NCBI RefSeq assembly: GCF_000026545.1
Contig: NC_011601.1
Strand: one strand, 5' to 3'
DNA from: Escherichia coli O127:H6 str. E2348/69
GTDB lineage: Bacteria; Pseudomonadota; Gammaproteobacteria; Enterobacterales; Enterobacteriaceae
DNA length: 64,000 bases
The position numbers and the translations under genes are program-made. The notes below the pieces were generated by a model. That model made no database searches, had not been told where the DNA came from, and worked only from the letters and a program-made list of their open reading frames with translations. This document shows positions 1,338 to 41,828 of the stretch, piece after piece; the first letter of the stretch is position 1; every line of letters begins with the position of its first letter.

Positions 1338-1376
1338 ATGCCTGATGCGACGCTTGCCGCGTTTTATCAGGCCTAC
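1338..1376. repeat. REP (repetitive extragenic palindrome) unit
   Basis: gcctgatgcgacgc...ttatcaggcctac motif typical of E. coli REP elements. Confidence 0.6.
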
Positions 1377-21384: not shown

Positions 21385-21511
21385 AAATAACCTCTCTGCA
21401 CGAAATATCGTATTATTGCCTGATGGGCTACACTTATCAGGTCTACGTTCAGGTTATTTTGTTGGCCGGATAAGACACTTCATTAGCATCACTATCCGGC
21501 ATCATTCAGTT

Positions 21512-23749: not shown

Positions 23750-24199
23750 ATGAAAAAGATTGCATTTGGCTGTGATCATGTCGGTTTCATTTTAAAACAT
23801 GAAATAGTGGCACATTTAGTTGAGCGTGGCGTTGAAGTGATTGATAAAGGAACCTGGTCGTCAGAGCGTACTGATTATCCGCATTACGCCAGTCAAGTCG
23901 CACTGGCCGTTGCTGGCGGAGAGGCTGATGGCGGGATTTTGATTTGTGGCACTGGCGTCGGTATTTCGATAGCGGCGAACAAGTTTGCCGGAATTCGCGC
24001 GGTCGTTTGTAGCGAACCTTATTCCGCGCAACTTTCGCGGCAGCATAACGACACCAACGTGCTGGCTTTTGGTTCAAGAGTGGTTGGCCTCGAACTGGCA
24101 AAAATGATTGTCGATGCGTGGCTGGGCGCACAGTACGAAGGCGGTCGTCATCAACAACGCGTGGAGGCGATTACGGCAATAGAGCAGCGGAGAAATTGA
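23750..24199 (+). CDS. rpiB: Ribose-5-phosphate isomerase B / allose-6-phosphate isomerase
   Basis: 149 aa RpiB/LacAB family. Confidence 0.92.
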   Translation: MKKIAFGCDHVGFILKHEIVAHLVERGVEVIDKGTWSSERTDYPHYASQVALAVAGGEADGGILICGTGVGISIAANKFAGIRAVVCSEPYSAQLSRQHNDTNVLAFGSRVVGLELAKMIVDAWLGAQYEGGRHQQRVEAITAIEQRRN

Positions 24200-24267
24200 G
24201 ATTCATCCACTACTTGCATGGATGAGTAATGACTAATGTGGATAGAGTTTCTTTTTGAGGTTGGCTA

Positions 24268-24597
24268 ATGAAACGCTTTCCGCTATTTCTTTTATTCACC
24301 CTGTTCACGCTGTCCACCGTTCCGGCCCAGGCCGATATTATCGATGACACCATTGGCAATATTCAGCAGGCGATTAACGACGCTTATAACCCTGACCGTG
24401 GGCGAGACTATGAAGATTCGCACGACGACGGCTGGCAGCGTGAAGTGAGCGACGATCGGCGCAGACAATATGACGACCGCCGCCGCCAGTTTGAAGATCG
24501 CCGCAGGCAGCTGGACGATCGCCAGCGCCAGCTGGATCAGGAGCGTCGGCAGCTAGAAGATGAAGAGCGGAGAATGGAAGATGAGTATGGGCGGTGA
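24268..24597 (+). CDS. yjdP: Small secreted, highly charged repeat protein
   Basis: Signal peptide MKRFPLFLLFTLFTLSTVPAQA followed by reiterated DDRRRQ-type repeats. Confidence 0.75.
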   Translation: MKRFPLFLLFTLFTLSTVPAQADIIDDTIGNIQQAINDAYNPDRGRDYEDSHDDGWQREVSDDRRRQYDDRRRQFEDRRRQLDDRQRQLDQERRQLEDEERRMEDEYGR

Positions 24598-24631
24598 TGT
24601 TGAGTTTAGAGCAGGCATCGCCCCTCACCCA

Positions 24632-25390
24632 TCACGCCACCCCAATCTCCATCCCATCAAACCCCGCCTCAAACCCCGACGGCAGTGCGTTTTCCATCAG
24701 CCACGCATCAAACTGGTGGTTGATATGGGTCAGAATCACCCGTGGCGAGCGGATAACCTGATTCAGCGCAAGCACGGTATTTAAATCACAGTGATTACGC
24801 GGTGCATCCTCGCGCGGCGGGTGGCTGCAATCAATCACCATTACCTGCGGCTGATTATTGCGTAAAAATTTCAGCGTTTTTTCCGGCAAGCCAGCGGTGT
24901 CAGACAGCCACGCCACCCGGCTGTGTGCCGTTTCCAGCAGATAACCGAAGGTCAGTTTTGAGTGGTTGAGCGGCAGGGGCGTGACCTGTAACCCCTGTAA
25001 ATCAAACACCACAAACGGTTCCATCGTGTGGCTGAAATCAAGCAGGCCCGGATGTTTAAACAGATCGTCGCAGCCCTGTTCATCCGGCGGGCCGTAGACC
25101 GGGATCTGATCGCCCACGCCCCAGCGCAGCGGAAACAGCCCCTGGACGTGATCCATATGATAATGCGTCAGCAAAAACTGCTGGAACGATCCGGGAGACC
25201 AGCGATCGGCGAGATCGTGCAGCCCGGCGTCGATCAGGGTGATCGCCCCGTTAAACTTCACTACGCCGCTGCACGGCTGGCGGCGATACTGCGGTGAGCG
25301 CAGCGCTCTGACGCAGGCTACGCACTCGCAGCCCCATGCCGGAACGCCCTGTGCGCCGCTGGTGCCGGTGAGCGTGAGGGTCAGGCTCAT
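24632..25390 (-). CDS. phnP: Phosphoribosyl 1,2-cyclic phosphate phosphodiesterase (metallo-beta-lactamase fold)
   Basis: Start at MSLTLTLTG (track extends 16 codons); HxHxDH motif (THYHMDH). Confidence 0.9.
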
Positions 25391-25391
25391 A

Positions 25392-25826
25392 TTACAGCGC
25401 CTTGGTGAAGCGGAAGTGGCTCTGCTCGTAGCCTTCACGCAGGTAAAAACGGTGCGCGTCGTGGCGCTTGACGTTGGTGGAAAGCTCGGTCATTTCGGCC
25501 CCAGCCTGGCGGGCTTCTTCTTCTGCCCATGCCAGTAATTTACTGCCGACGTTCAGACCGCGTGCCTGCGGCATCACCACCAGTTCCTGAATTTCGCCGA
25601 TCCAGTTGACATGATGCAGATGAAACTGCAAATGCAGGCCGATCATGCCGACAACCTCGCCATCCAACAGCGCCAGATGGTAGCGCATATTCGGGTCACG
25701 CAGGTTGGCGTTAAAGCCCACGCGAAACGCCTGGTGGTCAAACTCCGCTTGTTTTAGCTCACAAATCAGCGCGTAAACCGCGTCGGTGTCGTACTGCGTT
25801 GCCGGGCGAAGCTCACAAGCAGGCAT
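25392..25826 (-). CDS. phnO: Aminoalkylphosphonate N-acetyltransferase (GNAT)
   Basis: 144 aa GNAT fold in operon position. Confidence 0.9.
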
Positions 25827-26370
25827 GGTGTTTCTCCTTCTGATGAATCAGCGTCAGCAGCGTGTCGACCGACTGGCGCAGGCTGCCGTCATTATTGAGC
25901 GTAAGACAATCCTGAGGAGTATAGCGGGCAGCGCGCGCCAGCCGGGCGTTAATTTCACTGGCATTTTCACGACCACGGTTTTCCAGGCGCTGGCGCAGGA
26001 TCTCTGGCGAAACCTGTAAACAAACGGGCAGCAGCGCCGATTGATAGCGCGCCCGCGCCTGCGGCAGATGGGCGCGTGAGCCGTTGACCACCACGTCAAA
26101 TCCAGCGTGCAGCCAGAGGTCAATCTCGACGCCGACGCCATAATACAGACCGTTAGCGTGCCAGCTTAAGGCCAGAAGGTTCTGCCCCGCGCGGGTAAAA
26201 AACTCCTGCTCGCTCAGGGCGATATGGTTTTCACTTCCGGCGCTGGCGGCGCGCGTGATGTAGCGATGCGCTACCAGTAGCTGAGTTTGTTCCCGCTGGC
26301 GGAGTTCCGTCAACAGACTGTCTTTTCCGGAGCCAGAGGCCCCCATTAACCAAATCAGTTTTCCCGTCAT
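25813..26370 (-). CDS. phnN: Ribose 1,5-bisphosphate phosphokinase
   Basis: P-loop GASGSGKDS; 185 aa. Confidence 0.9.
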
Positions 26371-27506
26371 CAGAACACCCTTTTACCCTGACGCCAAACG
26401 TGGTCGATATGAATGTGGTTGCCCTTGCGATGCGCCAGCACCAGGTCGGCGCGTTTGCCCTCGCCAATCACCCCACGATCCTGGAGATTCAGTGCCTGGG
26501 CCGGGTTTTTGGTCACCAGCCTCACCGCCTGCGGCAGCGTAAAGCGGTTGCTCTGGTCATCGGCCACGCGAAACGCCGCATCCAGCAGGCTGGCGGGGTA
26601 GTAGTCGGAAGAGAGGATATCCAGCAGGCCAAGCTGCGCCAGTTCACTGGCCGCCACGTTGCCGGAGTGCGAACCGCCGCGCACGATATTCGGCGCGCCC
26701 ATCAGTACGTTCATGCCGTGCTTGCGCGAGGCTTCTGCCGCTTCGAATGTGGTAGGAAATTCGGCGATCACGCTGCCAAGCTGATGGGATTGGGCTACGT
26801 GGGCGTGCGTGGCGTCATCGTGGCTGGCGAGCGCAATGTGTCGCGCGCGGCACATTGCGGCGATGGATTCGCGATTCGGCTGTGACCAGCGTGCGGCGAG
26901 CGCCAGTTGCTCCTCTTCGTACTGTTGCATCTGCGCATCGGTGAGCGAGTATTTGCCCTGATAATATTCACGATATTTTTCGCGGTTGGCGAACTGGCGC
27001 TGGCCCGGTGAGTGATCCATCAGCGACACCAGCGTTACCGGTTCGCGCTGTACCAGTTTTTCAAACAGCGGCAGCGTGGTGTGATGCGGCAGTTCGCAGC
27101 GCAGGTGCAGACGGTGCTCGGCACGGTTGACGCCGCGTTTCTGCGTCTCTTCGATGGCGTTGATCATCTTCTCCAGATTCTCCAGCCGATCGCCGCCGTC
27201 GCGTACATCACCAATCGCCACGGCGTCCAGCACGGTGGTGATGCCGCTCGCCACCATCAGCGCGTCGTGGCTGCTCATCGCCGAGTGGGCAGGCCAGTCA
27301 ACTTTCGGGCGCGGGGTGAAGAATTTATCCAGATTATCGGTATGCAGCTCAATCAGCCCCGGTAGCAGCCAGCCGCCTTCGCCGTCCATTGCTTCTGACA
27401 GGTGACTCTGGCTTTCGGCAAAGGCGCGGATTTCGCCGTCCTGCATCTCCAGAGAACCGTGTACCACCTCGTTTTCCAGCACCAGTTTGACGTTATTGAT
27501 AATCAT
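26370..27506 (-). CDS. phnM: Amidohydrolase-family C-P lyase pathway enzyme
   Basis: 378 aa amidohydrolase-family protein. Confidence 0.9.
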
Positions 27507-28183
27507 GAAGAGACTCCCATTGGGTGCAGGCGGTCGGCGACTTGCTCGCGTACGGCTTCGTCATGGAAGATACCGACGATGGCCGCGCCGCGGGCTTTGG
27601 CTTTGCGGATCAGTTCCACTACGGCGGCGCTGTTTTTAGCGTCCAGCGAGGCGGTAGGTTCGTCGAGCAGCAGAATGGGGTAGTCGACGATAAAGCCGCG
27701 GGCGATGTTGACACGCTGTTGTTCGCCGCCGGAGAAGGTCGATGGTGCCAGGTGCCACAGACGTTCCGGCACGTTCAGGCGCGTGAGCAGACGCGCGGCT
27801 TTAGCGGCACAGGCTTCACGCGGTACGCCGGTATCGAGCAGCGGCTGCATCACCACTTCCAGTGCCGAAATACGCGGGATGACGCGCAGAAACTGGCTTA
27901 CCCAGCCGACAGTGGTTTTGCGGATCTCCACCACTTTGCGTGCTGGCGCGGTGACCAGGTCGACCCATTCATCACCGTGTTTGATCTGGATTTGCCCTTC
28001 GTCGGGTAGATAGTTGGCATACAGCGAGCGTAGCAAAGTTGATTTTCCACTGCCGGAATGGCCGTGGAGTACCACGCATTCGCCGGCGTTGACGGTGAGT
28101 GAGGCGCCTTGTAATACAGGCAGGCGCACGCCGTTTTGCTGGTGCAGGATAAAGGTTTTACTGACGTTTTGTACGTTAATCAT
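27503..28183 (-). CDS. phnL: C-P lyase system ATP-binding protein
   Basis: Start at MINVQNVSK (track extends 38 codons through the REP); Walker [10 protein letters not shown]. Confidence 0.88.
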
Positions 28184-28204
28184 TTTTCGCCTCGTGGTTC
28201 GGGT

Positions 28205-28289
28205 GTCGGATGCGACGCTGATGCGTCTTATCCGACCTACGGGGAGCGCATTTGTAGGCCGGATAAGGTGTTTACGCCGCATCCGGCAC
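28205..28289. repeat. Pair of REP units between phnL and phnK
   Basis: gtcggatgcgacgc...cttatccgacctac and gtaggccggataagg...gcatccggca motifs. Confidence 0.7.
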
Positions 28290-28293
28290 CGGC

Positions 28294-29052
28294 TCAATTC
28301 TGCAAAACCGATGACACCAGCAACTGGGTATACGGATGGTGTGGGTCGTCGAGCACGCGGTCAGTTAACCCACTCTCCACCACTTTCCCTTGCTTCATTA
28401 CCAGCAAACGGTCCGCCAGCAGACGGGCGACGCCTAAATCGTGGGTGACAATCACTACCGCCAGGTTAAGCTCCATCACCAGACCGCGGAGCAGGTCCAG
28501 CAGGCGCGCCTGTACCGACACATCCAGCCCGCCAGTGGGTTCATCCATAAACACCAGCTTCGGATGCGTCACCAGGTTGCGGGCAATCTGCAAACGTTGC
28601 TGCATGCCGCCGGAAAAGGTGGTCGGCAGGTCGTCGATACGGTTAGCGGGAATCTCCACCTCTTCCAGCCACTTCTGCGCGGTGGCGCGAATATCGCCGT
28701 AATGACGCGCTCCGGTTGCCATCAACCGTTCGCCGATATTGCCGCCTGCCGACACCTGGCGGCGCAGGCCGTCAAGCGGATGCTGATGTACCACACCCCA
28801 TTCGGTGCGCAGCAGGCGACGGCGGTCGGCCTCGCTCATCGCATACAGCGAACGGTTCTCGTAGCGAATTTCCCCTTGCTGTGGCGTCAGGCGGGCGGAA
28901 ATTGATTTCAGTAGCGTGGTCTTCCCGGAACCGGACTCCCCAACAATGCCCAGAACTTCTCCCGGCCATAAATCAAAAGAGACATCGCTGAAACCTTTGC
29001 CCGGGGCATAAAGGTGGGTCAGGTTATTGACCGAAAGTAACGGTTGATTCAT
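28294..29052 (-). CDS. phnK: C-P lyase system ATP-binding protein
   Basis: Start at [11 protein letters not shown]; Walker [10 protein letters not shown]. Confidence 0.9.
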
Positions 29053-29894
29053 TGGCTTTTGGCCTCGCTCTGTTGGCGGCAATAATCGGTATCGGAGCAG
29101 ACAAACATGCGGTTTCCGGCGTCATCCAGCACCACTTCATCAAGATAGCTGTGGGTCGATCCGCAGATGGCGCATGGTTCATCCCACTGCTGGACGGTGA
29201 ACGGATGATCATCGAAATCGAGGCTTTCCACGCGGGTAAACGGTGGCACGGCATAGATGCGCTTCTCGCGCCCCGCGCCAAACAGTTGCAGGGCGGGCAT
29301 CATGTCCATTTTCGGGTTATCGAATTTCGGGATCGGCGACGGGTCCATTACGTAGCGCCCGTTCACCTTCACCGGATAGGCGTAGGTGGTGGCGATATGA
29401 CCGAAGCGGGCGATATCTTCATACAGTTTCACCTGCATCACGCCGTACTCCTCCAGCGCGTGCATGGTGCGCGTTTCCGTCTCTCGCGGCTCAATAAAGC
29501 GCAGCGGTTCGGGGATCGGCACCTGGAAGATAACTATCTGATCTTCGGTCAGCGGCGTTTCGGGTATGCGGTGACGCGTCTGGATAAGTGTCGCATCGTC
29601 CGTGCGCTCGGTGGTGTTCACCCCGGTCACGCGCTTAAAGAAGTTACGAATCGACACGGCGTTGGTGGTGTCGTCTGCGCCCTGGTCAATCACCTTCAAC
29701 ACGTCGCTTTCGCCAATCACGCTGGCGGTGAGCTGAATGCCGCCGGTTCCCCAGCCGTAGGGCATCGGCATCTCGCGTCCGCCAAACGGCACCTGATAAC
29801 CGGGGATTGCCACCGCTTTTAAGATAGCGCGGCGGATCATGCGTTTGGTCTGCTCGTCGAGGTAAGCAAAGTTGTAGCCGCTCAGATTAGCCAT
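29049..29894 (-). CDS. phnJ: Radical-SAM C-P lyase catalytic subunit
   Basis: Start at MANLSGYNFAYLDEQTKRMIRR, 63 codons inside the track ORF; conserved C-terminal cysteine cluster. Confidence 0.9.
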   Translation of the reverse strand: MANLSGYNFAYLDEQTKRMIRRAILKAVAIPGYQVPFGGREMPMPYGWGTGGIQLTASVIGESDVLKVIDQGADDTTNAVSIRNFFKRVTGVNTTERTDDATLIQTRHRIPETPLTEDQIVIFQVPIPEPLRFIEPRETETRTMHALEEYGVMQVKLYEDIARFGHIATTYAYPVKVNGRYVMDPSPIPKFDNPKMDMMPALQLFGAGREKRIYAVPPFTRVESLDFDDHPFTVQQWDEPCAICGSTHSYLDEVVLDDAGNRMFVCSDTDYCRQQSEAKSQ

Positions 29895-30951
29895 GGTTCT
29901 GCTCCTGTTGCAGACGTTTGAGTAGCTCCAGTTCGGCCTGGAAATCGACGTAGTGCGGGAGTTTGAGATGCGAAACAAAGCCTGCGGCTTCGACGTTGTC
30001 GGCATGGGCCAGCACGAACTCTTCATCCTGTGCCGGACCTGTTGCGTACTCGCCGTATTCCGGTGCCTGCAACGCACGGTCAACCAGCGCCATCGCCATT
30101 GCTTTGCGCTCGCTCATGCCGAACACCAGCCCATAGCCGCGTGTAAAATGCGGTGGTTCATCCGGCGGGTCGATAAAACCGTTGACCATTTCACACTCGG
30201 TCATCAACAATTCGCCGACGTTCACCGCAAATCCCAGCTCTTCCGGCACAATAAATATATCGATATAGCCACTGCGAATTTCGCCTGCGAACGGGTGATT
30301 GCGCCCGTAACCGCGTTGGGTGGAGTAGGCCAGCGCCAACAAATAGCCTTCGTCACCGCGCATTAATTGTTGTAGACGGGAAGAACGCGAACAGGGATAA
30401 ACCGGCGGCGTGCGGGTGATGTCGTCCGGTTGTGCGCCGCTATCTTCTTCAAACTTCGCCAGCCCCTGACGCGCCAGCAGGCTGAAGACGTGTGGCGACG
30501 GTTGCTGTTCGCTGTCAGCGGTGGTCAGCGTTGGCGTTTCGCCGTTTGCCAGCAGGGTGAAATCGAGCAGGCGATGGGTGTAGTCGTAGGTGGGGCCAAG
30601 CAGTTGGCCGCCGGGAATGTCTTTATAAATTGCTGAAATACGCCGTTCTAGACGCATCCCGGTGGTGTCGAGCGGCTCACTGACCGCCAGCTTCGCCAGC
30701 GTGGTGCGGTAGGCGCGCAACAGGAAAATCGCTTCGACGTTATCGCCGCTGGCCTGTTTCAGCGCCAGCGCGGCCAGCTCGCGGTCGGCAATACCGCCTT
30801 CGGTCATCACGCGATCTACCGCGAGGTTAAGCTGCTGTTCAATCTGGGCGACGCTCAGTTCAGGCAAATCAGTATCGCCCCGGCGTCGGCTCTCTTGCAG
30901 GGCGTGGGCGGCGTCGATCGCCTTTTCGCCCCCTTTCACGGCAACGTACAT
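29887..30951 (-). CDS. phnI: C-P lyase core complex subunit
   Basis: Start at [10 protein letters not shown] (track begins at an upstream GTG); 8-nt overlap with phnJ. Confidence 0.9.
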   Translation of the reverse strand: MYVAVKGGEKAIDAAHALQESRRRGDTDLPELSVAQIEQQLNLAVDRVMTEGGIADRELAALALKQASGDNVEAIFLLRAYRTTLAKLAVSEPLDTTGMRLERRISAIYKDIPGGQLLGPTYDYTHRLLDFTLLANGETPTLTTADSEQQPSPHVFSLLARQGLAKFEEDSGAQPDDITRTPPVYPCSRSSRLQQLMRGDEGYLLALAYSTQRGYGRNHPFAGEIRSGYIDIFIVPEELGFAVNVGELLMTECEMVNGFIDPPDEPPHFTRGYGLVFGMSERKAMAMALVDRALQAPEYGEYATGPAQDEEFVLAHADNVEAAGFVSHLKLPHYVDFQAELELLKRLQQEQNHG

Positions 30952-31535
30952 CAGCACACCTCCACATGAGTGGTTCGCGGAATAGCCAGCAGGCGCTCGC
31001 CGCAGGTCAGGATCAGGTCGATGCCGAGCGGGAACGGGTGCGGGCGCTCGGTAAGTTCATGAAGAATGCACTTTGGCAGTTGCGGGGCGATCATCCGTTC
31101 TTCGGCAATACCTGCGCCGGTGAGGCGCAACATACGCCCACCGCTCAGGCTGGTGACCTGTAAAATCAGCGTTGCGCCCGCTTCTGGTGCAACGGCAGTG
31201 CCGGTGGAAAGGGCGTTGAGCTGCTCGCTGGAGATCGCCTCATCTGTTACCGCGAAGGTCGCCTGTTTCGGCTGATTAACCAGCGGCGCGTTGGTATGAA
31301 AACGCAGGCTCTGATTGACGATATCGTTGCTCAATGGTGCGGCAAGCCACACCGGCGTGTCGTTATCGGCCAGCGTCAGCAGCACGCTGGTGGTGGCGAT
31401 ATTCAGCGGCTGCCAGCCGCGCTTGAGCTGATGCAGGGCGACAATCACGCCCGGCTCGCTCATGGCCTTTAACAGGCGACGAAAACTGTGCTGGGCATCC
31501 TGCACGGGAAGCATAAAAGCGGTTTCCAGGGTCAT
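30951..31535 (-). CDS. phnH: C-P lyase core complex subunit
   Basis: 194 aa; overlaps phnI start and phnG stop. Confidence 0.9.
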
Positions 31536-31984
31536 GCGTTGTCTCCGCGAACCATCGTAAAGAAGTCGACCCGGCTGGCGTTCACTTCGGCCTGACGCGC
31601 GGCAATGCGTGCCATACGGTTAGCGTCCAGCGGGGCAATAAGGGTTTCTGATAAGTTTTGAAAATGGCGGGTTTGCTGCATCAGCGCGTCAATCAGCGCG
31701 CAGCGTTCGGCGTGCTGTTTGTCGCGCCCCAGTACCCAGCTATAGCCGAGTGTGCCGTCAGTCAGACGCACGGCGGCGCGGGTGAGCGTGGCGTCGCCAG
31801 CAAAAAAGCGTTCGCCGGTGCCGCCCATTCGCGCCTGAATCTGCACCAGGCCAGTTTCAGCGGCGCGGATCACCTCATAATCGGCGTTGATGTTCAGCGC
31901 CTTCAGGCGGGCTGCCAGTTCAGCCGGTTGGCTGTGCGCCAGCACGGACATCCAGTGCTGGCGGGTCGCGGTATCTGCGTGCAT
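31532..31984 (-). CDS. phnG: C-P lyase core complex subunit
   Basis: 150 aa; 4-nt start/stop overlap with phnH. Confidence 0.9.
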
Positions 31985-32710
31985 TCAGTGCTCCATAGTG
32001 AATTCAATCATGTCGGCGCGCGTCAGGCTGACGGAGTACTCCGCCGGGCTGCTTTCACCGTCACGGTGGTTAAGGGTGCGCACGCACAGCAGCGGCGACA
32101 GATTCGGGATTTCAAGACGCTGGCACTCTTTGGCCTGGGCGCGGCGGGCGCTGATCCGCGTCTGGCTGCGTCGTAGCGTAATCCCCGTTTGCTCGCGCAG
32201 AAAATCGTGCAGCGAACCGCTGTCGAAACGTTGCAGCGTCGGCCAGAGGGTGAGGTCCGCAAAGTAGTGGTCGATTAAACAGAGCGCGACGCCGTTGACC
32301 CGACGCAGGGTGCGCAGGTGGATGACGTTCTCCCCCTCGGTTATCCCCAGCGCGTCAGCGACGTGACCGGAGGCGGGGCGCAGCACTGATAGCAATTTTT
32401 CGCTGGTGGGATGGCTGCCCTGGTCCAGCAGGTTCTGGCTAAAACGCGCCTGGGCGTTGAGCGGGTAATCGAACGGGCGCATCAGCACCAGTACGCCGAC
32501 GCCCTGACGGCGCTGTACCCAGCCTTTTTCCACCAGTTGGTCGATGGCGCGGCGCAGGGTGTGGCGGTTCACCTCAAAGCGTGCCGCCAGTTGCTGCTCG
32601 GCGGGAAGATAGTCGCCGCAGCGGTAGTGTTGACGAAGCTCCTGCTCAAGTTTTGCGGCTATCTCCTGATAGCGTGTTGGGTAGCTGGTCGGATGTGTAG
32701 ACAAGTGCAT
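31985..32710 (-). CDS. phnF: GntR-family repressor of the phn operon
   Basis: HTH N-terminus and UTRA-like C-terminal domain; start at MHLSTHPTSY. Confidence 0.88.
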   Translation of the reverse strand: MHLSTHPTSYPTRYQEIAAKLEQELRQHYRCGDYLPAEQQLAARFEVNRHTLRRAIDQLVEKGWVQRRQGVGVLVLMRPFDYPLNAQARFSQNLLDQGSHPTSEKLLSVLRPASGHVADALGITEGENVIHLRTLRRVNGVALCLIDHYFADLTLWPTLQRFDSGSLHDFLREQTGITLRRSQTRISARRAQAKECQRLEIPNLSPLLCVRTLNHRDGESSPAEYSVSLTRADMIEFTMEH

Positions 32711-32730
32711 AGATATCAATGCCTCGCTTA

Positions 32731-33510
32731 TCAGATAAAGTGCTTACGCAACCGTTGAGAGAGGAAATCCAGCAGGCTGACCGTGACGATGATGAGCACC
32801 ATCAGGGCGCAGGTTTGCTGGAACTGGAAACCGCGAATCGCTTCCCACAGCGTGACGCCAATTCCGCCCGCACCAACCATACCGACGACGGTCGCCGAGC
32901 GGACGTTGGATTCGAAGCGATAGAGAGAGTAGGAGATCAGCAGCGGCATGACCTGCGGTAGTACGCCGTAAAGGATCTCTTCCAGCTTGTTGGCACCGGT
33001 GGCGCAAATGCCCTCCACCGGGCCGGGTTCAATCGCTTCTACCGCTTCGGAAAGCAGTTTGGAAAGTACGCCGGTGGTGTGGATAAACAGCGCCAGCACG
33101 CCAGCGAACGGGCCGAGGCCGACGGCGACCACGAACAGCATGGCGAAGACCATTTCGTTAATGGCGCGGCAGGCGTCCATCAGGCGGCGTACAGGTTGGT
33201 AGACCCACCACGGTACCAGGTTTTCAGCGCTCATCAGGCCGAAGGGGATGGAGAGAACCACCGCCAGCGCGGTGCCCCAGACGGCGATTTGCAGCGTGAC
33301 GGCCATTTCGGTGAGGTAATCCTGCCACTGGCTGAAATCGGGCGGGAAGAAGTCGGCGGCGAACGTCGCCATGTTGCCGCCATCTTTAATCAGCGTAAGC
33401 GGTGCCATTTCCGCGCCCTGCCACGAGACGACCAGCACGGCGATAACAACGGCCCAGCTCAGAAGCGAGAACCAGCTGCGCTTGGGTGGGGCGATGGTGA
33501 TGGTTTGCAT
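32731..33510 (-). CDS. phnE: Phosphonate ABC transporter permease, intact frame
   Basis: Uninterrupted ORF; start at [17 protein letters not shown]; the track's upstream extension ([13 protein letters not shown]) is REP-derived. Confidence 0.85.
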
Positions 33511-33526
33511 GTTTGGCTCCGGTCTG

Positions 33527-33614
33527 TAGGCCGGATAAGGTGCTTGCACCGCATCCGGCATCAACGTCTGCACATTGTCGGATGCGACGCCGGGGCGTCT
33601 TATCCGACCTACGA
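33527..33614. repeat. Pair of REP units between phnD and phnE
   Basis: gtaggccggataagg...gcatccggca and gtcggatgcgacgcc...ttatccgacctac. Confidence 0.7.
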
Positions 33615-33615
33615 T

Positions 33616-34632
33616 TTACTGCACCGCTTTACTCACCGAACTCATTGCGCTTAACGCGTTGTTCAGGCGGTCCAAATCATCCAGTTGCGCCTGAATGGCG
33701 GTGGTTTTTGCCAGCTTGTCCTGTTCGTTCAGCCCTTTGTTGTCCTTCACGCTTTGCATCTCTTTAAACAGTGCGAGCTGGCGAATCGGCACCAGTTGCA
33801 AGTCGCTGGAGGCGCGGAACGGCGCCCAGCCCAGGCGCTCCAGCACCGCTTTCTCTTCCGGCGTTTTGCCGTAATTCATAAAGAAGTCGTAGATCTTGTC
33901 TTTAGTGGTTTCGGACAGATTTTTGCGCCAGACGATCGGATCGCCTGGGATCAGCGGCGATTTCCAGATCACTTTCAGCTCTTTGAGCTTCTCCGGCGCG
34001 GAGGTTTTCAGCTTGTCGAGGTTTTCGGTGTTGTTGGTGGCGACATCCACTTGCTTGTTAGCGACGGCGAGGGCGTTGGTTTCATGCCCGGCGTTGACGG
34101 TGCGCTTAAAGTCGCTGGCGGAGATATTGTTTTTAGCGAAGACGTAGTAGCCGGGGACGAGGAAGCCGGAGGTAGAGTTAGGATCGCCATTGCCGAAGGT
34201 GAGATCTTTCCGCTTCGCCAGCAGATCGTTCAGGTTGTTGATCGGACTATCTTTGTTGACGATCAACACGCTCCAGTAACCCGGCGATCCATCCGCCGCG
34301 ACCGTCTGGGCGAAGACCTGGCCGTTGGCGCGATCCACCGCTTCCATCGCCGACAGGTTGCCGTACCAGGCGATATCCACTTTATTGAAGCGCATCCCCT
34401 GGATAATGCCCGCGTAGTCCGGGGCAAAGAAGGCGTTTACCTTTACGCCCAGCTTCTTCTCCATATCCTGTAAGAACGGCGTCCATTGCGGTTTCAGGTT
34501 TTGCTGTGATTCCGTTGAAATAATGCCGAAATTCAGCGCCTTTTCCTGCTCTTCGGCGTATGCCGGATTTAACAGGGTGCTGAGGCTGAACATGCTGGTG
34601 AAGGCCAGCGAGGCAATTATCTTAGCGTTCAT
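33616..34632 (-). CDS. phnD: Phosphonate periplasmic binding protein
   Basis: 338 aa with signal peptide. Confidence 0.92.
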   Translation of the reverse strand: MNAKIIASLAFTSMFSLSTLLNPAYAEEQEKALNFGIISTESQQNLKPQWTPFLQDMEKKLGVKVNAFFAPDYAGIIQGMRFNKVDIAWYGNLSAMEAVDRANGQVFAQTVAADGSPGYWSVLIVNKDSPINNLNDLLAKRKDLTFGNGDPNSTSGFLVPGYYVFAKNNISASDFKRTVNAGHETNALAVANKQVDVATNNTENLDKLKTSAPEKLKELKVIWKSPLIPGDPIVWRKNLSETTKDKIYDFFMNYGKTPEEKAVLERLGWAPFRASSDLQLVPIRQLALFKEMQSVKDNKGLNEQDKLAKTTAIQAQLDDLDRLNNALSAMSSVSKAVQ

Positions 34633-34656
34633 TCGTTTTCCTCAATGATGGGGATG

Positions 34657-35445
34657 TCAGGCAGCTTTCGCGTTCTCTTCGACGCGGTTAATGCTGCGGT
34701 AGAGATGGTCAAAACGTTCGTTATCAAACTGTTGGCTGCAGCCGTCGTAGAAGACGTGCCCCTGGCGCAGGGCGACGATGCGTTCGCAGTAGCGCAGGGC
34801 GTAATCCACCTGATGCAGCGTGACGACCACGGTAATGCCGTCGTTCTGGTTGATGTCGCGCAGGGTGTCCATCACGATGCGTGCCGATTCCGGGTCCAGC
34901 GAGGCGATGGGTTCGTCAGCGAGAATGACCTTCGCCTGCTGCATCAGCGCGCGGGCAATCGCCACACGCTGTTGCTGGCCGCCGGAGAGTGTGGAAACGC
35001 GTTGATGGGCAAAGTGCACCATGCCAACGCGGGTCAGCGCCTGTAACGCGCGCTGTTTCTGCTCGCGGGTGAAGTAGCTAAAACAGGTTCGCCAGAATGG
35101 CGTGCTGCCGAGCGCGCCAATCAGCACGTTCTCCAGTACGCTCAGGCGATTCACCAGGTTGAATTGTTGAAAGATGTAGCCGGTATGGGCGCGGCTTTTG
35201 CGGATATCGCGGGCCAGACGGCCTTCGCGCTGGACAGTGCGGCCCAGCAGCTCGATATGGCTACCGACAGATTTATCGCCGGTAATCAAACCGCTTAAGT
35301 GACGTAAAAGGGTGGATTTTCCGGAACCCGACGGCCCAAGCAGAGCCACCATTTCACCATGATGAATGTTCAGATCAACCGCGTGCAGCGCCTGATGCTG
35401 ATTGAAGGTTTTGGCGAGCTTCTCGACACGGATAATCGTTTGCAT
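34657..35445 (-). CDS. phnC: Phosphonate ABC transporter ATPase
   Basis: Walker [10 protein letters not shown], signature LSGGQQQR. Confidence 0.92.
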
Positions 35446-35577
35446 GATGCAGCCTCCCTAAAAAAGTGGCTCCATCGTGGCGGATTATTGTGACGATTTG
35501 GTTAATTAAAAGTGACTAACAGATGAAGAGTTAACGGGAATTCGATGACAGTGCGGGAGGGCGGGCCTCCCGGCGGG

Positions 35578-36021
35578 TTATTGCGTTGGCTGTTGTTTGA
35601 TGACATTAATCATCCACGGTACGCCAAATTTATCGGTGACTTTGCCAAAGCCATGCGCCCAGAACGTTCCCTGCCAGGCCATTTCGATTTTTCCGTTGGC
35701 GGCAAGGTTATCAAACCAGCGTTTTCCTTCTTCCACCTGTTGCGAATCGAGCACCAGCGTAAAGCCGGAGTAGCTGGCTTTTCCTGACGGCATGGCATCG
35801 CTCATCATGATGTCGCTTCCGGCAATGCGCACGTTGGCATGCGCGATGGCGGTATCGGGAAATTGCATTCCGGAAGGGCAGTTTTCGGCGCTGTCCTGCG
35901 CTGATTTCGGCATTTCGCCGAAGCTGATTTTATAGAGCAGTTCCGCGCCCAACGTACGTTGATAATAGGCAATCGCGTCGGAACAGTTACCGGCAAAAGA
36001 GAGGTAGGGACTTAACGGCAT
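35578..36021 (-). CDS. yjdN: VOC/glyoxalase-family protein (PhnB-like)
   Basis: 147 aa. Confidence 0.8.
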   Translation of the reverse strand: MPLSPYLSFAGNCSDAIAYYQRTLGAELLYKISFGEMPKSAQDSAENCPSGMQFPDTAIAHANVRIAGSDIMMSDAMPSGKASYSGFTLVLDSQQVEEGKRWFDNLAANGKIEMAWQGTFWAHGFGKVTDKFGVPWMINVIKQQPTQ

Positions 36022-36085
36022 GATGGTGACCTCAGTTAAGAGAAGCCCGTTAAGTGTAGTTCGAAATTTATACAGATGAGAGGGA

Positions 36086-36165
36086 AGCCTGATAAGACGC
36101 GGTCAGCGTCGCATCAGGCAGTCGCCACCGTTGCCGGATGCGGCGCGAGCGCCTTATCCGGCCTA
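36086..36165. repeat. Pair of REP units between yjdN and yjdM
   Basis: gcctgataagacgc...gcatcaggc and gccggatgcggcgc...ccttatccggcctac. Confidence 0.7.
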
Positions 36166-36180
36166 CCGATCACAATACAA

Positions 36181-36516
36181 TCAGTTCTTTTTCACAAACT
36201 CAGACTTCAGTTTCATCGGACCAAAACCGTCGATTTTGCAATCGATGTTATGGTCGCCTTCAACCAGGCGGATGTTTTTCACTTTGGTGCCAATTTTCAG
36301 CATCGAAGAGCTACCTTTCACTTTCAGATCTTTAATGATGGTCACGCTGTCGCCGTCAGCCAGCAGATTGCCGTTAGCATCTTTAACGATCAGCTCGTCG
36401 CTTTCCTGTGCAGGTTCTGCGTCGTTCCATTCGTAGGCACATTCCGGGCAGATGTACATGCCGTTATCTTCGTAGGTGTATTCGGAGTTGCATTTTGGGC
36501 AGTGTGGTAATGACAT
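36181..36516 (-). CDS. yjdM: Zinc-ribbon protein YjdM (PhnA-like)
   Basis: Start at [26 protein letters not shown] with CxxC...CxxC; track ORF extends 49 codons upstream into the REP. Confidence 0.88.
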
Positions 36517-36918
36517 GTGGATTTCCTCAAAAGTCAGCAGGGCAAAAGCGCCAAAAAACGGCAGATTGCCGAAAAAGGCCGCAATTATACACAAAATCCC
36601 TGAGTTTGTCGGGGGTACTGCTGATTTTAGACGACGATCGTTTTCATTTGAAAGGAAACGCAAAAAGAAAATAATCTTTTTGCCTCCATTTATTATTTAA
36701 GATAAGGTTAATGCTCTACATGTTCTTTTTTTAATTCAAATGATGTTTTTTATCTTTCTGACGTTTTAAACGTATCGGAAGACGTTATTTATTCTAATAA
36801 AAAACAACACTCTAAATATAAAATTATTTCTTGCAGTAATTATAAAAGCCGAAAACAGAACTCAAAAACAATCTGGCTAAATAAAAGTAATAAAATTTGC
36901 TTTAAGGAAAAATTTTCT

Positions 36919-39147
36919 ATGTACACACAGACCCTGTATGAGTTAAGTCAGGAGGCTGAACGCCTGTTACAGCTTTCTCGCCAACAGTTGCAGTTACTGG
37001 AAAAAATGCCTCTCTCTGTACCCGGAGACGATGCGCCACAACTGGCTTTACCCTGGAGTCAGCCTAATATCGCCGAACGTCACGCGATGCTGAATAATGA
37101 GTTGCGTAAAATTTCCCGACTGGAAATGGTGCTGGCGATTGTCGGTACTATGAAAGCAGGGAAATCAACCACCATTAATGCCATTGTTGGTACGGAGGTT
37201 CTGCCTAATCGCAATCGCCCAATGACTGCGCTGCCGACGCTTATTCGCCATACGCCCGGGCAAAAAGAACCGGTACTGCATTTTTCACATGTCGCGCCAA
37301 TCGATTGTTTAATTCAAAAATTACAACAGCGCCTGCGTGATTGCGATATTAAGCATCTGACCGATGTGCTGGAAATAGATAAAGATATGCGTGCGCTTAT
37401 GCAGCGGATCGAAAATGGCGTCGCTTTCGAAAAATATTATCTGGGTGCCCAGCCTATTTTTCATTGTCTGAAAAGTTTGAATGATTTGGTGCGACTGGCG
37501 AAGGCGCTGGACGTCGATTTTCCTTTTTCTGCTTACGCCGCCATTGAGCATATTCCCGTGATTGAAGTGGAGTTTGTCCATCTGGCGGGGCTGGAGAGTT
37601 ATCCCGGTCAATTGACGTTACTGGATACCCCCGGGCCAAATGAAGCCGGGCAACCGCATCTGCAAAAAATGCTTAACCAGCAGCTGGCACGCGCCTCGGC
37701 GGTACTGGCGGTGCTGGATTATACGCAACTGAAATCGATCTCCGATGAAGAGGTCCGTGAGGCGATTTTGGCGGTGGGGCAATCGGTGCCGCTGTATGTG
37801 CTGGTCAATAAGTTCGATCAACAGGATCGTAACAGTGACGACGCCGACCAGGTGCGGGCACTGATTTCCGGAACGCTGATGAAAGGCTGTATTACGCCAC
37901 AGCAGATATTTCCGGTGTCGTCGATGTGGGGCTACCTGGCGAATCGGGCGCGCCATGAGTTAGCCAACAACGGTAAGTTACCCGCGCCAGAGCAACAACG
38001 CTGGGTGGAAGATTTTGCCCATGCCGCGCTCGGCAGGCGCTGGCGTCATGCCGATCTGGCGGACCTCGAACATATTCGCCATGCTGCCGATCAGTTGTGG
38101 GAGGATTCGCTGTTCGCCCAGCCAATTCAGGCGTTGCTTCATGCCGCTTACGCTAACGCCTCGTTGTATGCTCTGCGATCTGCCGCGCATAAACTGTTGA
38201 ATTACGCGCAGCAGGCGCGGGAATACCTGGATTTTCGTGCGCACGGGTTAAACGTCGCTTGTGAACAATTGCAGCAAAATATCCATCAGGTCGAAGAAAT
38301 TTTGCAGCTATTGCAACTCAATCAGGCGCAGGTGAGCGGCGAGATTAAACATGAAATCGAGTTGGCCCTGACCTCCACCAACCACTTTCTGCGTCAACAG
38401 CAAGATGCGGTGAATGCGCAGTTAGCCGCGTTGTTTCAGGATGATTCGGAGTCGTTAAGTGAGATGCGTACCCGCTGTGAGACACTGTTACAGACGGCGC
38501 AGAACACCATCAGTCGCGACTTTACGCTGCGCTTTGCCGAGCTTGAGTCCACCCTTTGCCGGGTGTTAACCGATGTTATTCGCCCCATTGAGCAACAAGT
38601 CAAAATGGAATTGAGCGAGTCAGGGTTTCGTCCTGGGTTTCATTTTCCTGTTTTTCACGGCGTAGTTCCCCACTTCAACACTCGCCAGCTGTTCAGTGAA
38701 GTCATTTCGCGCCAGGAAGCAACGGACGAGCAGAGCACGCGTTTAGGCGTTGTGCGTGAGACTTTTTCGCGCTGGTTGAATCAGCCCGACTGGGGACGGG
38801 GAAATGAGAAATCCCCGACAGAGACGGTTGATTACAGTGTGTTGCAACGAGCATTAAGCGCAGAAGTCGATCTTTATTGCCAACAAATGGCTAAAGTTCT
38901 GGCAGAGCAGGTCGATGAATCTGTTACGGCAGGCATGAATACTTTTTTCGCTGAGTTCGCTTCATGTTTGACGGAATTACAGACGCGTTTACGCGAAAGT
39001 ATGGCTCTGCGTCAACAAAATGAATCGGTGGTCAGGCTGATGCAACAGCAATTGCAGCAGACTGTGATGACTCACGGCTGGATTTACACCGACGCTCAGC
39101 TGTTACGCGATGATATTCAAACACTTTTCACGGCAGAACGATATTGA
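36919..39147 (+). CDS. crfC: Dynamin-like GTPase (clamp-binding sister replication fork colocalization protein)
   Basis: 742 aa; P-loop GTMKAGKST near the N-terminus; long coiled-coil C-terminal region. Confidence 0.88.
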   Translation: MYTQTLYELSQEAERLLQLSRQQLQLLEKMPLSVPGDDAPQLALPWSQPNIAERHAMLNNELRKISRLEMVLAIVGTMKAGKSTTINAIVGTEVLPNRNRPMTALPTLIRHTPGQKEPVLHFSHVAPIDCLIQKLQQRLRDCDIKHLTDVLEIDKDMRALMQRIENGVAFEKYYLGAQPIFHCLKSLNDLVRLAKALDVDFPFSAYAAIEHIPVIEVEFVHLAGLESYPGQLTLLDTPGPNEAGQPHLQKMLNQQLARASAVLAVLDYTQLKSISDEEVREAILAVGQSVPLYVLVNKFDQQDRNSDDADQVRALISGTLMKGCITPQQIFPVSSMWGYLANRARHELANNGKLPAPEQQRWVEDFAHAALGRRWRHADLADLEHIRHAADQLWEDSLFAQPIQALLHAAYANASLYALRSAAHKLLNYAQQAREYLDFRAHGLNVACEQLQQNIHQVEEILQLLQLNQAQVSGEIKHEIELALTSTNHFLRQQQDAVNAQLAALFQDDSESLSEMRTRCETLLQTAQNTISRDFTLRFAELESTLCRVLTDVIRPIEQQVKMELSESGFRPGFHFPVFHGVVPHFNTRQLFSEVISRQEATDEQSTRLGVVRETFSRWLNQPDWGRGNEKSPTETVDYSVLQRALSAEVDLYCQQMAKVLAEQVDESVTAGMNTFFAEFASCLTELQTRLRESMALRQQNESVVRLMQQQLQQTVMTHGWIYTDAQLLRDDIQTLFTAERY

Positions 39148-41788: not shown

Positions 41789-41802
41789 GCTGAAACGGAT
41801 GG

Positions 41803-41828
41803 CCTGATGTGACGCTGTCTTATCAGGT
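41803..41828 (+). terminator. Hairpin after proP stop (cctgat...atcagg), possible terminator/REP-like
   Basis: Inverted repeat read directly. Confidence 0.35.

Follow-up and report, generated by a model that had tools for sequence, protein, structure and literature searches.

Among the closest described relatives of the elements considered here is the REP stabilizer of the malE-malF junction (with those of hisJ-hisQ and pstS), which lies 3′ of a binding-protein gene and 5′ of a permease gene, and which raises the amount of binding-protein mRNA because it blocks 3′ exonucleases (PMC5927463; references in PMC3333891). In the ABC-importer operons of E. coli the stabilized gene is invariably the one for the substrate-binding subunit, malE being guarded by an intergenic 3′ structure (Dar and Sorek 2018, PMC5927463). 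Another close system is REP325/naRNA4 of K-12, an array of six units (12 hairpins) between yjdM and yjdN, and among the sites treated below it is only there, in K-12 and with six units, that a barrier has been demonstrated experimentally (bioRxiv 10.64898/2026.03.23.713779). REP325 stabilizes the yjdM mRNA and attenuates yjdN; when it is deleted, the yjdM/yjdN mRNA ratio falls from ~35 to ~1, with yjdM going down and yjdN rising ~10-fold. Fragments with two to four hairpins are insensitive to bicyclomycin, Rho dependence appearing only with the full 12-hairpin array, and neither deletion nor overexpression changes the nucleoid volume or the Hi-C contacts, and the authors reject a chromosome-structuring role. 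At the genomic level the same work finds a raised upstream/downstream expression ratio in tandem gene pairs that contain REPs, whereas mRNA upstream of REPs is not longer-lived as a general rule, and the effects depend strongly on context (bioRxiv 10.64898/2026.03.23.713779).

The window analyzed, a stretch of 64,000 nt from E. coli O127:H6 str. E2348/69, carries the phnC-P operon on the minus strand, and its genes match the annotated E2348/69 chromosome at 100% identity, so that the gene assignments are correct. An earlier note on this DNA had placed pairs of REPs at the phnL/phnK, phnE/phnD and yjdN/yjdM junctions, and a pattern scan together with an alignment of the units bears this out: the pattern GATGCG-N6-24-YTTATCMGNCCTAC has six matches in the window, where 100 shuffles give an expectation of 0.00, five of the six matches falling within the three gaps, and the alignment of six REP units contains 17 invariant columns, the arms within a unit being complementary at 79–87%. 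These are imperfect palindromes of ~30–37 nt with the GATGCG...CTTATC core and the GTAG/CTAC foot that define the REP or palindromic unit (PU); all of them lie between annotated CDSs, in the 3′-proximal extragenic position, starting 3–14 nt past the stop codon. They also belong to a dispersed family, as other REPs are present in the window at 1340–1376, 21433–21474 and 41802–41828 and REP-containing queries find a median of 2–5 matching places per genome, the published totals for MG1655 being 355 elements and 697 PUs. All three belong to the ordinary REP doublets of E. coli, of the BIME/REPIN type, composed of y and z2-type palindromic units, and they lie on the minus-strand messages of phnC-P or yjdMN. 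Three of the six REP loci of the 64-kb window are found within 8 kb (binomial P ~0.03), a post-hoc enrichment that is marginal.

The phnK-phnL gap (28184..28293, minus strand, 110 nt) is bounded by the phnK stop codon at 28294–28296 and by the GAGG Shine-Dalgarno and ATG (28181–28183) of phnL, and it holds a tail-to-tail doublet whose RNA fold reaches −52.8 kcal/mol (z = −5.8). Its y-type REP (GCCGGATGCGGCGTAAACACCTTATCCGGCCTAC; 28254..28289, minus strand) forms the first hairpin of the mRNA, with the stem 6 nt past the phnK stop, and a z2-like variant (28205..28240, plus strand), with the compensated foot GTCGG...CCGAC followed by CTAC, forms the second. In the phnD-phnE gap (33511..33615, minus strand, 105 nt), between the phnD stop at 33616–33618 and the GGAG Shine-Dalgarno and ATG (33508–33510) of phnE, the doublet is head-to-head (RNA fold −50.6 kcal/mol, z = −5.8); there the first hairpin of the mRNA is a z2-like variant (GTCGGATGCGACGCCGGGGCGTCTTATCCGACCTAC; 33577..33612, plus strand), its GTAG foot 3 nt past the phnD stop, and the y-type REP (GCCGGATGCGGTGCAAGCACCTTATCCGGCCTAC; 33526..33559, minus strand) ends 5 nt before the Shine-Dalgarno of phnE. 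The yjdM-yjdN gap (36022–36180, 159 nt) contains a single y + z2 BIME-2 unit (36086..36163, minus strand; RNA fold −54.6 kcal/mol, z = −4.3), made up of a y-type REP (36133..36166, plus strand), whose GTAG foot lies on the mRNA 14 nt past the yjdM stop (36181–36183), and of a z2-type REP (GCCTGATGCGACGCTGACCGCGTCTTATCAGGC; 36083..36119, minus strand) with a degenerate foot, CTTCC in place of CCTAC; in the count of pattern matches this unit is delimited as 36087–36119. Each doublet can be folded either as two adjacent hairpins or as a single long one, at about −50 kcal/mol. The last element is located outside the phnC-P operon, and on this point the earlier reading fails; the description of the other phn junctions as tight holds from F/G to O/P (−14 to +1 nt), not at C/D (+24) or E/F (+20).

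With respect to the named families (Gilson, Bachellier, Hofnung), the doublets resemble BIME-2 and the atypical BIMEs in the alternation of y and z2, the short linkers and the GTAG/CTAC foot. Only the yjdM/yjdN element has both the alternating y + z2 unit and the strain-variable tandem copy number of BIME-2, whose arrays are known to vary in copy number between strains (PMC3333891). The phnK/phnL and phnD/phnE doublets are best called atypical BIMEs, because each occurs as one doublet only and has a variant of the z unit, whose foot is GTCGG...CCGAC instead of the canonical GCCTG...CAGGC. None of the three is a BIME-1, the z units being of z2 length (stem-loops of 32–33 nt) and the linkers of 13–17 nt, and inspection of the three linkers gave no match to the IHF consensus WATCAANNNNTTR. 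The Rfam model RF02564 (naRNA4) scores 88.9 bits at 36086–36163 on the minus strand, against a gathering threshold of 59.5; 68.7 bits at 33529–33609, on the plus strand only, that is, antisense to phn; and at phnK/phnL 39.3 bits, under the 59.5-bit threshold. The yjdM/yjdN element is orthologous to REP325, sharing its flanking genes and its y + z2 unit, although with one 100-bp unit (2 hairpins) in place of six. As regards intrinsic terminators, there is no terminator-like call at the three sites and no U-tract after the hairpins, and scans for promoter and terminator consensus sequences found nothing there and overall no excess over shuffles. The copy of the NC_000913.3 feature table used here carries no curated REP features, and the REPs of K-12 were called by pattern scan, which gives 12 REPs, or six 100-bp units, between yjdM and yjdN.

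The idea that the REPs create spurious N-terminal extensions of reading frames proved correct: phnL is listed with 264 aa against 226 annotated, and phnE with 280 against 259. In strains that carry the alternative palindrome described below, an in-frame TAA occurs 15 nt before the phnE ATG, which rules out the extension of phnE. Gene callers, and even the K-12 reference, can place the start of phnE or phnL inside a REP.

Comparison across strains, suggested as a check on these REPs, reveals that they are polymorphic, with a different palindrome replacing them at the two phn sites and the copy number varying at yjdM/yjdN. Across 5,426 E. coli genomes, phnK/phnL holds the REP pair in 89% and the unrelated BoxC palindrome in 10%, one or the other being present in 99.3%, and no empty allele was seen among the sampled rows. 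At phnD/phnE the shares, taken from evenly spaced rows, are ~71% for REP and ~28–31%, most of the remainder, for BoxC; a reciprocal BLAST count of the BoxC allele at 80% coverage is uninformative here, since the REP allele covers 81% of the query. At both sites the two cassettes segregate with identical boundaries. The alternative alleles, like the yjdP-phnP gap of K-12, match the motif CCCTCNCCC-N3-6-GGGNGAGGG-N3-GGGNGAGGG of the BoxC/PIT/TMECO triplex-motif repeats, and they are hot-spots of intergenic variation as the TMECO loci are (PMC4666352), this family being represented in the window itself only by a remnant at 24616–24630. The main stem of the BoxC alleles begins ~13–16 nt past the stop codon, and all REP and BoxC alleles fold strongly (−23.5 to −95 kcal/mol). 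A variant with an internal deletion of 16 nt is also present. The yjdM/yjdN array has 1, 2, 4, 5 or 6 units according to the strain, with the single-unit form in ~60% of the sampled E. coli genomes. The functional equivalence of REP and BoxC is an assumption, given that BoxC (PIT) elements had neither terminator nor promoter activity in earlier assays (PMC4666352).

In other genera the two phn sites part company. Taking −12 kcal/mol or stronger as a hairpin, one follows phnD, at phnD/phnE, in 41 of 42 species, while the corresponding counts are 3 of 47 for phnC/phnD, 7 of 79 for phnJ/phnK and 14 of 78 for phnK/phnL; in 32 of the 41 its start is no more than 15 nt past the stop codon, many of these hairpins are unique, non-repeat sequence, and a U-run follows in at least 7 of the 41, a lower bound only, as the U-tail score is crude and its 45-nt fold window may take in extra bases. 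Citrobacter sp. FP75, Leclercia and others have an empty phnK/phnL site, with the stop codon adjoining the Shine-Dalgarno, so that a hairpin there is dispensable; the outgroups were Pseudocitrobacter, Citrobacter, Kluyvera, Leclercia and Enterobacter, and the contig scan found no other Escherichia species among the PhnK matches listed. These counts suggest that a hairpin slot of the malE-malF type is conserved at phnD/phnE, and that the phnK/phnL element is a lineage-specific insertion. It may further be, and we propose this tentatively, as somewhat less than an even chance, that the phnD/phnE slot is selected, a strong stem-loop after the binding-protein gene being required across Proteobacteria while the sequence that forms it changes again and again with the palindromic repeats that the lineage possesses; the slot was seen to be occupied by REP, by BoxC, by Pseudomonas REPs and by unique hairpins that resemble terminators.

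We hold with moderate confidence that the doublets most likely act as hairpin barriers at the 3′ side of a message, giving more of the upstream than of the downstream product. Endonucleolytic cleavage would occur further downstream, the 3′-to-5′ exonucleases would then stall at the REP hairpin, and the upstream segment (phnCD, phnC-K or yjdM) would outlast the downstream one; attenuation of read-through at the doublets would be modest at most, and the net outcome would be an excess of the upstream product. Under phosphate starvation, phn coverage falls along the operon (PMC3734233). The barrier reading appears strongest at phnD/phnE, owing to the conservation across Proteobacteria of a hairpin in this position after the binding-protein gene, where the order of binding protein and then permease is that of malE-malF; the differences are that phnD is second in its operon, behind the ATPase gene phnC, and that in ~28–31% of E. 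coli strains a BoxC palindrome replaces the REP. It is weakest at phnK/phnL, a lineage-specific insertion between stop codon and Shine-Dalgarno in a place that is empty in related genera. The earlier note had suggested decay barriers or attenuators, and REPs are well established as such and were shown to be so at yjdM/yjdN in K-12, although for these doublets attenuation is the weaker of the two proposals, on account of the lack of Rho dependence in fragments of two to four hairpins. The suggested partition of transport from catalytic genes does not correspond in detail to the positions, as the phnD/phnE REP falls among the transporter genes, between phnCD and phnE, and that of phnK/phnL among the catalytic ones, between phnG-K and phnL-P.

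An alternative explanation for the doublets, doubtful in our view although the least improbable of those weighed against the barrier, is that they are neutral passengers, selfish or RAYT-mobilized palindromes that gather at non-overlapping junctions with no selected effect on phn, phnD/phnE and phnK/phnL being merely the sole junctions with room. The polymorphism between strains, the replacement of alleles, the yjdM/yjdN copy number of 1 to 6 units and the deletion variant are what such passengers would leave, as are the empty phnK/phnL sites of related genera, the sporadic insertions there and the known role of BoxC loci as hot-spots for intergenic change (PMC4666352); however, the near-constant phnD/phnE hairpin, often non-repeat and at times with U-runs, fits this poorly, the similar-sized phnC/phnD gap is nearly always hairpin-free, almost every E. 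coli genome retains a palindrome at phnK/phnL, and deletion of REP325 has a large local effect on expression. It is rather less probable, and on the whole unlikely, that the doublets damp the translation of the gene upstream, the hairpin blocking the terminating ribosome and calling for tmRNA rescue, with lower PhnD, PhnK and YjdM as the result. The 15-nt rule, as relayed in PMC12306157, states that a REP up to 15 nt past the stop lowers the upstream protein (Liang, Rudd, Deutscher 2015), an effect that would oppose a gain in PhnD under the barrier reading. The distances of 3 nt (phnD), 6 nt (phnK) and 14 nt (yjdM) all fall inside this rule, and so do the 32 cross-species hairpins mentioned above; but such closeness is just as usual for plain terminators or for hairpins that protect the mRNA and is therefore non-discriminating, the BoxC main stems stand at the very edge of the rule, and less binding protein would run contrary to the usual stoichiometry of importers.

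A mainly transcriptional attenuation, in which partial termination, Rho-dependent or induced by the hairpin, would let less RNA polymerase into phnE-P and phnL-P, seems more unlikely still, even if BIMEs have been reported to attenuate transcription (Espeli 2001, cited in PMC3333891), REP325 limits the read-through into yjdN ~10-fold, and the phnD/phnE hairpins that are followed elsewhere by a U-run resemble a leaky intrinsic terminator. The E. coli doublets themselves are neither followed by a U-tract nor called as terminators, the two- and four-hairpin fragments of REP325 are insensitive to bicyclomycin, Rho needing the 12-hairpin array, and a single assembled transcript spans all 14 genes under phosphate starvation. 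The boundary at phnK/phnL drawn from the phnG-K and phnL-P sub-transcripts (Li et al. 2013) was set aside, because with uniquely mapped reads and low coverage gaps arise at REPs by themselves; similarly, steps of RNA-seq coverage at REPs are a confounded test, since REP reads map to multiple places in the genome. Finally, a role at the level of the DNA, as sites for gyrase, HU or Pol I or as topological insulators easing the supercoiling of a long and strongly induced operon, is highly improbable: gyrase targets BIME-2 and REPs have been proposed as topological insulators (references in PMC3333891), and the yjdM/yjdN element, with its y + z2 unit, belongs to BIME-2, but the nucleoid volume and Hi-C contacts are indifferent to REP325, the three linkers lack the IHF consensus by inspection, and the REPs are replaced by BoxC alleles without known gyrase binding.

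In summary, the presence of REPs in the phn region of E. coli is long known and ordinary, and their likely roles are textbook matter. The phn sequence papers of 1990–91 are said to have already noted these REPs; in the open full-text literature we found no discussion of those at phnD/phnE or phnK/phnL. The significance of the REP finding as stated is small, and the new context consists of the shares of REP and BoxC alleles, the range of units at yjdM/yjdN, and the comparison of phnD/phnE with phnK/phnL hairpins across genera. The conserved hairpin after phnD, with the turnover of the elements that form it, offers a clean natural example of mobile palindromes becoming, or replacing, regulatory hairpins. 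The balance of expression between PhnD and PhnE, and between the PhnG-K core and PhnL-P, may differ between strains with REP and with BoxC alleles. If the reading of phnD/phnE as a selected slot were true, mobile palindromes would be interchangeable regulatory modules, exapted by the operons that carry them, and the natural pairs of REP and BoxC alleles would provide a ready-made test of whether they tune operon stoichiometry differently.

The region 24000-37000 of the window matches the E. coli E2348/69 chromosome NZ_CP059840.2 at 100% identity; in the annotation of that chromosome, phnC-P lie on the minus strand (phnC, 34657-35445; phnD, 33616-34632; phnE, 32731-33510; phnK, 28294-29052; phnL, 27503-28183; phnP, 24632-25390), with yjdN (35578-36021) and yjdM (36181-36516), also on the minus strand, upstream of them. 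Measured from the annotated genes, the gaps that carry REP elements are of 110 nt between phnK and phnL (28184-28293), 105 nt between phnD and phnE (33511-33615) and 159 nt between yjdM and yjdN (36022-36180). The tight overlap that an earlier note attributed to the other phn junctions is found at those of -14 to +1 nt, but not at phnC/phnD (24 nt) or phnE/phnF (20 nt). The phnE gene of E2348/69 is intact, with 259 codons, and that of K-12 is a frameshifted pseudogene with an 8-bp repeat insertion.

Each of the three gaps contains, by reading of the sequence and by inverted-repeat search, two palindromic units in opposite orientation. Shuffled sequence gives an expectation of 0.00 matches to the REP pattern GATGCG-N6-24-YTTATCMGNCCTAC; the 64-kb window has six, five of them inside the three gaps, where a looser scan picks up a sixth unit with a degenerate foot (36087-36119). 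Once aligned, these units fall into two groups, the y-type (GCCGGATGCGG...CCTTATCCGGCCTAC) and the z2-type, the latter in its canonical form (GCCTGATGCGACGC...GCGTCTTATCAGGC) at yjdM/yjdN and as a foot-compensated variant, GTCGG...CCGAC, at phnK/phnL and phnD/phnE. What the earlier note described is correct but for the small phnC/phnD and phnE/phnF gaps. In the mRNA, the phnK/phnL gap runs from UGA through 6 nt, a y hairpin, a 13-nt linker and a z hairpin to 'ACCCGAACCAC GAGG CGAAAA AUG', as a tail-to-tail doublet; the phnD/phnE gap from UAA through 3 nt, a z hairpin with its GTAG foot, a 17-nt linker and a y hairpin to 'AGACC GGAG CCAAAC AUG', as a head-to-head doublet; and the yjdM/yjdN gap has UGA, 14 nt, a y hairpin, a 13-nt linker and a z2 hairpin. 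The RNA folds reach -52.8, -50.6 and -54.6 kcal/mol, respectively, which against dinucleotide shuffles corresponds to z-scores of -5.8, -5.8 and -4.3, and a consensus scan found neither a sigma-70 promoter nor a terminator (hairpin plus U-run) at any of the three elements. Elsewhere in the window there are a single z2-type unit at 1340-1376(+), a doublet whose feet each have one mismatch at 21433-21474 and a short, degenerate unit at 41802-41828(+), which makes six REP loci altogether.

The Rfam model naRNA4 (RF02564) scores 88.9 bits on 36086-36163(-), with a gathering score of 59.5. For the phnD/phnE element (33529-33609) that score is exceeded on the + strand, antisense to phn (68.7 bits), but not in the phn sense (51.8 bits); therefore the model effectively detects any head-to-head y-z REP pair, and not a specific sRNA gene. 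The phnK/phnL element remains under the threshold. The three elements are ordinary REP doublets, and the question of their identity is closed. In K-12, the yjdM/yjdN gap holds 12 REPs in six 100-bp y + z2 units, which is REP325, the source of naRNA4 and already a studied model, in contrast to the one unit of the orthologous gap of E2348/69. The element is found in 5,367 of 5,426 complete E. coli genomes, in spans of 1, 2, 4, 5 or 6 units, the single-unit form of E2348/69 making up roughly 60% of evenly sampled rows; such variation in copy number between strains is a known property of BIME-2 (PMC3333891).

Within E. coli, the phnK/phnL REP allele was matched in 4,840 of 5,426 genomes at a query coverage of 80% or more, and a further 546 carry a different intergenic region of 176 nt (locus L004), so that the two alleles together account for 99.3%. 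The phnD/phnE REP allele was matched in 3,876 of these genomes, and in evenly spaced sampling a remainder of about 28-31% has instead 60, 61, 73 or 125 nt (loci L005-L007 and L089). The alternative alleles are made of CCCTCTCCC...GGGAGAGGG and CCCTCACCC...GGGTGAGGG palindromes, that is, the BoxC/PIT/TMECO motif, which marks variable intergenic regions and for which terminator activity is reported to be absent (PMC4666352); their RNA folds range from -23.5 to -95 kcal/mol. The boundaries of the exchange are the same at both junctions, from the stop codon to some 10-20 nt before the next start, and the Shine-Dalgarno is retained. REP is combined with REP in E2348/69 and K-12, REP at phnK/phnL with BoxC at phnD/phnE in GB089, and BoxC with BoxC in EC19; among the sampled E. 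coli rows, no empty allele was found at either junction. In E. coli LR-27 the phnD/phnE REP allele is of 89 nt, having lost the top of the z hairpin through a 16-nt internal deletion (GTCGGATG|TATCCGAC), which shows that this doublet can decay in place. The yjdP-phnP gap, at the 3′ end of the operon, is a third BoxC-polymorphic site of the region, with 146 nt and an inverted BoxC/TMECO palindrome pair in K-12 (1199-1344 of the K-12 locus, L003) and only 35 nt, with the remnant GCCCCTCACCC, in E2348/69 (24598-24632).

The spurious N-terminal extensions that the earlier note expected from the REPs are borne out, since the mechanical ORFs of phnL (264 aa, annotated 226) and phnE (280 aa, annotated 259) reach into them. 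The curated start of the K-12 phnE1 pseudogene (L003 9444-10282; NC_000913.3 4322443-4323281), 51 nt upstream of the PGAP ATG, likewise lies within a y-type REP (L003 10251-10280). In the BoxC allele a TAA stands in frame 15 nt before the phnE ATG, which shows that the extension does not belong to the gene, and the extended K-12 start is therefore probably a REP artefact.

A scan seeded with PhnK gave at least 80 loci, which belong to Enterobacterales, Vibrionales, Pseudomonadales, Rhodobacterales, Hyphomicrobiales and others, with no other Escherichia species among the matches listed; junction lengths in these loci were tabulated after mapping of the E. coli Phn proteins. Among these matches, the phnD/phnE gap seldom falls below about 50 nt, and folding in 45-nt windows finds a hairpin of -12 kcal/mol or stronger there in 41 of 42 loci, which begins no more than 15 nt from the phnD stop in 32 of the 41; the same criterion finds one at 3/47 phnC/phnD, 7/79 phnJ/phnK, 14/78 phnK/phnL and 7/65 phnM/phnN junctions. 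The sequences of the phnD/phnE hairpins are mutually unrelated across genera: they derive from BoxC elements in Pseudocitrobacter, Kluyvera, Leclercia and Enterobacter, from enterobacterial REPs in Citrobacter and Cedecea, and from GTAGGAGCGAGC- and CTGTGGGAGCGGGC-type REPs in Pseudomonas, and are unique and GC, several with a U-run behind, in Vibrionaceae, Rhodobacteraceae and Rhizobiales. A strong hairpin also stands 3′ of phnE in 12 of 33 species among the matches listed (L017, L018, L038-L075), which in these taxa may be where a separate phnCDE unit ends; the phnE/phnF gap is of 99-118 nt in Cedecea and, in E. coli, of 20 nt and unstructured. At phnK/phnL, the comparison points to a short gap without structure as the basal state, with the phnL Shine-Dalgarno adjoining the phnK stop in Citrobacter sp. 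FP75 and Leclercia (TAA GAGGCCAAC ATG), and palindromic repeats inserted, among the matches listed, only sporadically (in E. coli, C. werkmanii, Kluyvera, E. cloacae, E. asburiae, Cedecea and several Pseudomonas). The term "insertion" is therefore apt for phnK/phnL, whose site is empty in relatives, but phnD/phnE is better described as the occupancy of a conserved hairpin position. In Pseudocitrobacter faecalis (L009) both gaps are long, 251 nt at phnD/phnE and 298 nt at phnK/phnL, with about four BoxC units in each, and PhnK is 98% identical to that of E. coli (94% in Citrobacter/Enterobacter), which suggests that its phn cluster may come from a recent exchange with an Escherichia-like lineage.

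As to function, the division of transport from catalytic genes proposed in the earlier note does not fit the map, as the phnD/phnE doublet sits within the transporter block, the phnK/phnL doublet within the catalytic block, and the yjdM/yjdN doublet outside phnC-P. The best-supported reading is that a REP doublet would act as a 3′ hairpin barrier, favoring the upstream over the downstream segment. Such an effect has been shown for the orthologous yjdM/yjdN element in K-12: according to a preprint of 2026 by the Xiao and Adhya groups (bioRxiv 10.64898/2026.03.23.713779), REP325 does not compact the nucleoid, stabilizes yjdM mRNA and restricts transcription into yjdN, its deletion taking the yjdM/yjdN ratio from 35 to about 1 and raising yjdN about 10-fold; genome-wide, the upstream/downstream expression ratio is higher in tandem gene pairs with an intervening REP. 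For phnD/phnE we infer such a barrier because a binding-protein gene is followed by a permease gene, the hairpin is nearly universal, and the stabilized gene of E. coli ABC-importer operons is that of the substrate-binding protein (PMC5927463). Attenuation by two-hairpin elements would be a weaker component, given the lack of a terminator consensus at the three sites and a Rho dependence that is partial and seen only with the full 12-hairpin REP325, not with 2- or 4-hairpin fragments (bioRxiv 10.64898/2026.03.23.713779). It is also possible that ribosomes stall at the stop-proximal REPs of phnD and phnK, with an effect opposite in direction to that of a barrier.

At phnK/phnL, the border between the phnGHIJK core-complex genes and phnLMNOP, the evidence for a barrier is mixed: related genera do without the hairpin, and yet almost every E. 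coli genome has one of two unrelated palindromes. Purely neutral elements would agree well with this pattern, as with the variation in copy number, but are at odds with the conservation of the phnD/phnE hairpin. RNA-seq under phosphate starvation gave a single 14-gene transcript with coverage falling along the operon (PMC3734233); the sub-transcripts breaking at phnK/phnL that were also assembled there were set aside as evidence of a boundary, because low-coverage, uniquely mapped reads by themselves make gaps at REPs.

In summary, REP doublets at these junctions are already known, the yjdM/yjdN element being a published model REP, and the REP feature itself remains ordinary. What may be new are two by-products of moderate interest, which leave that verdict intact: the REP/BoxC allelism of E. 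coli, in which the two kinds of allele share their boundaries, and the hairpin 3′ of phnD, conserved in position and unrelated in sequence, both of them an example of turnover in the element that supplies a regulatory hairpin.
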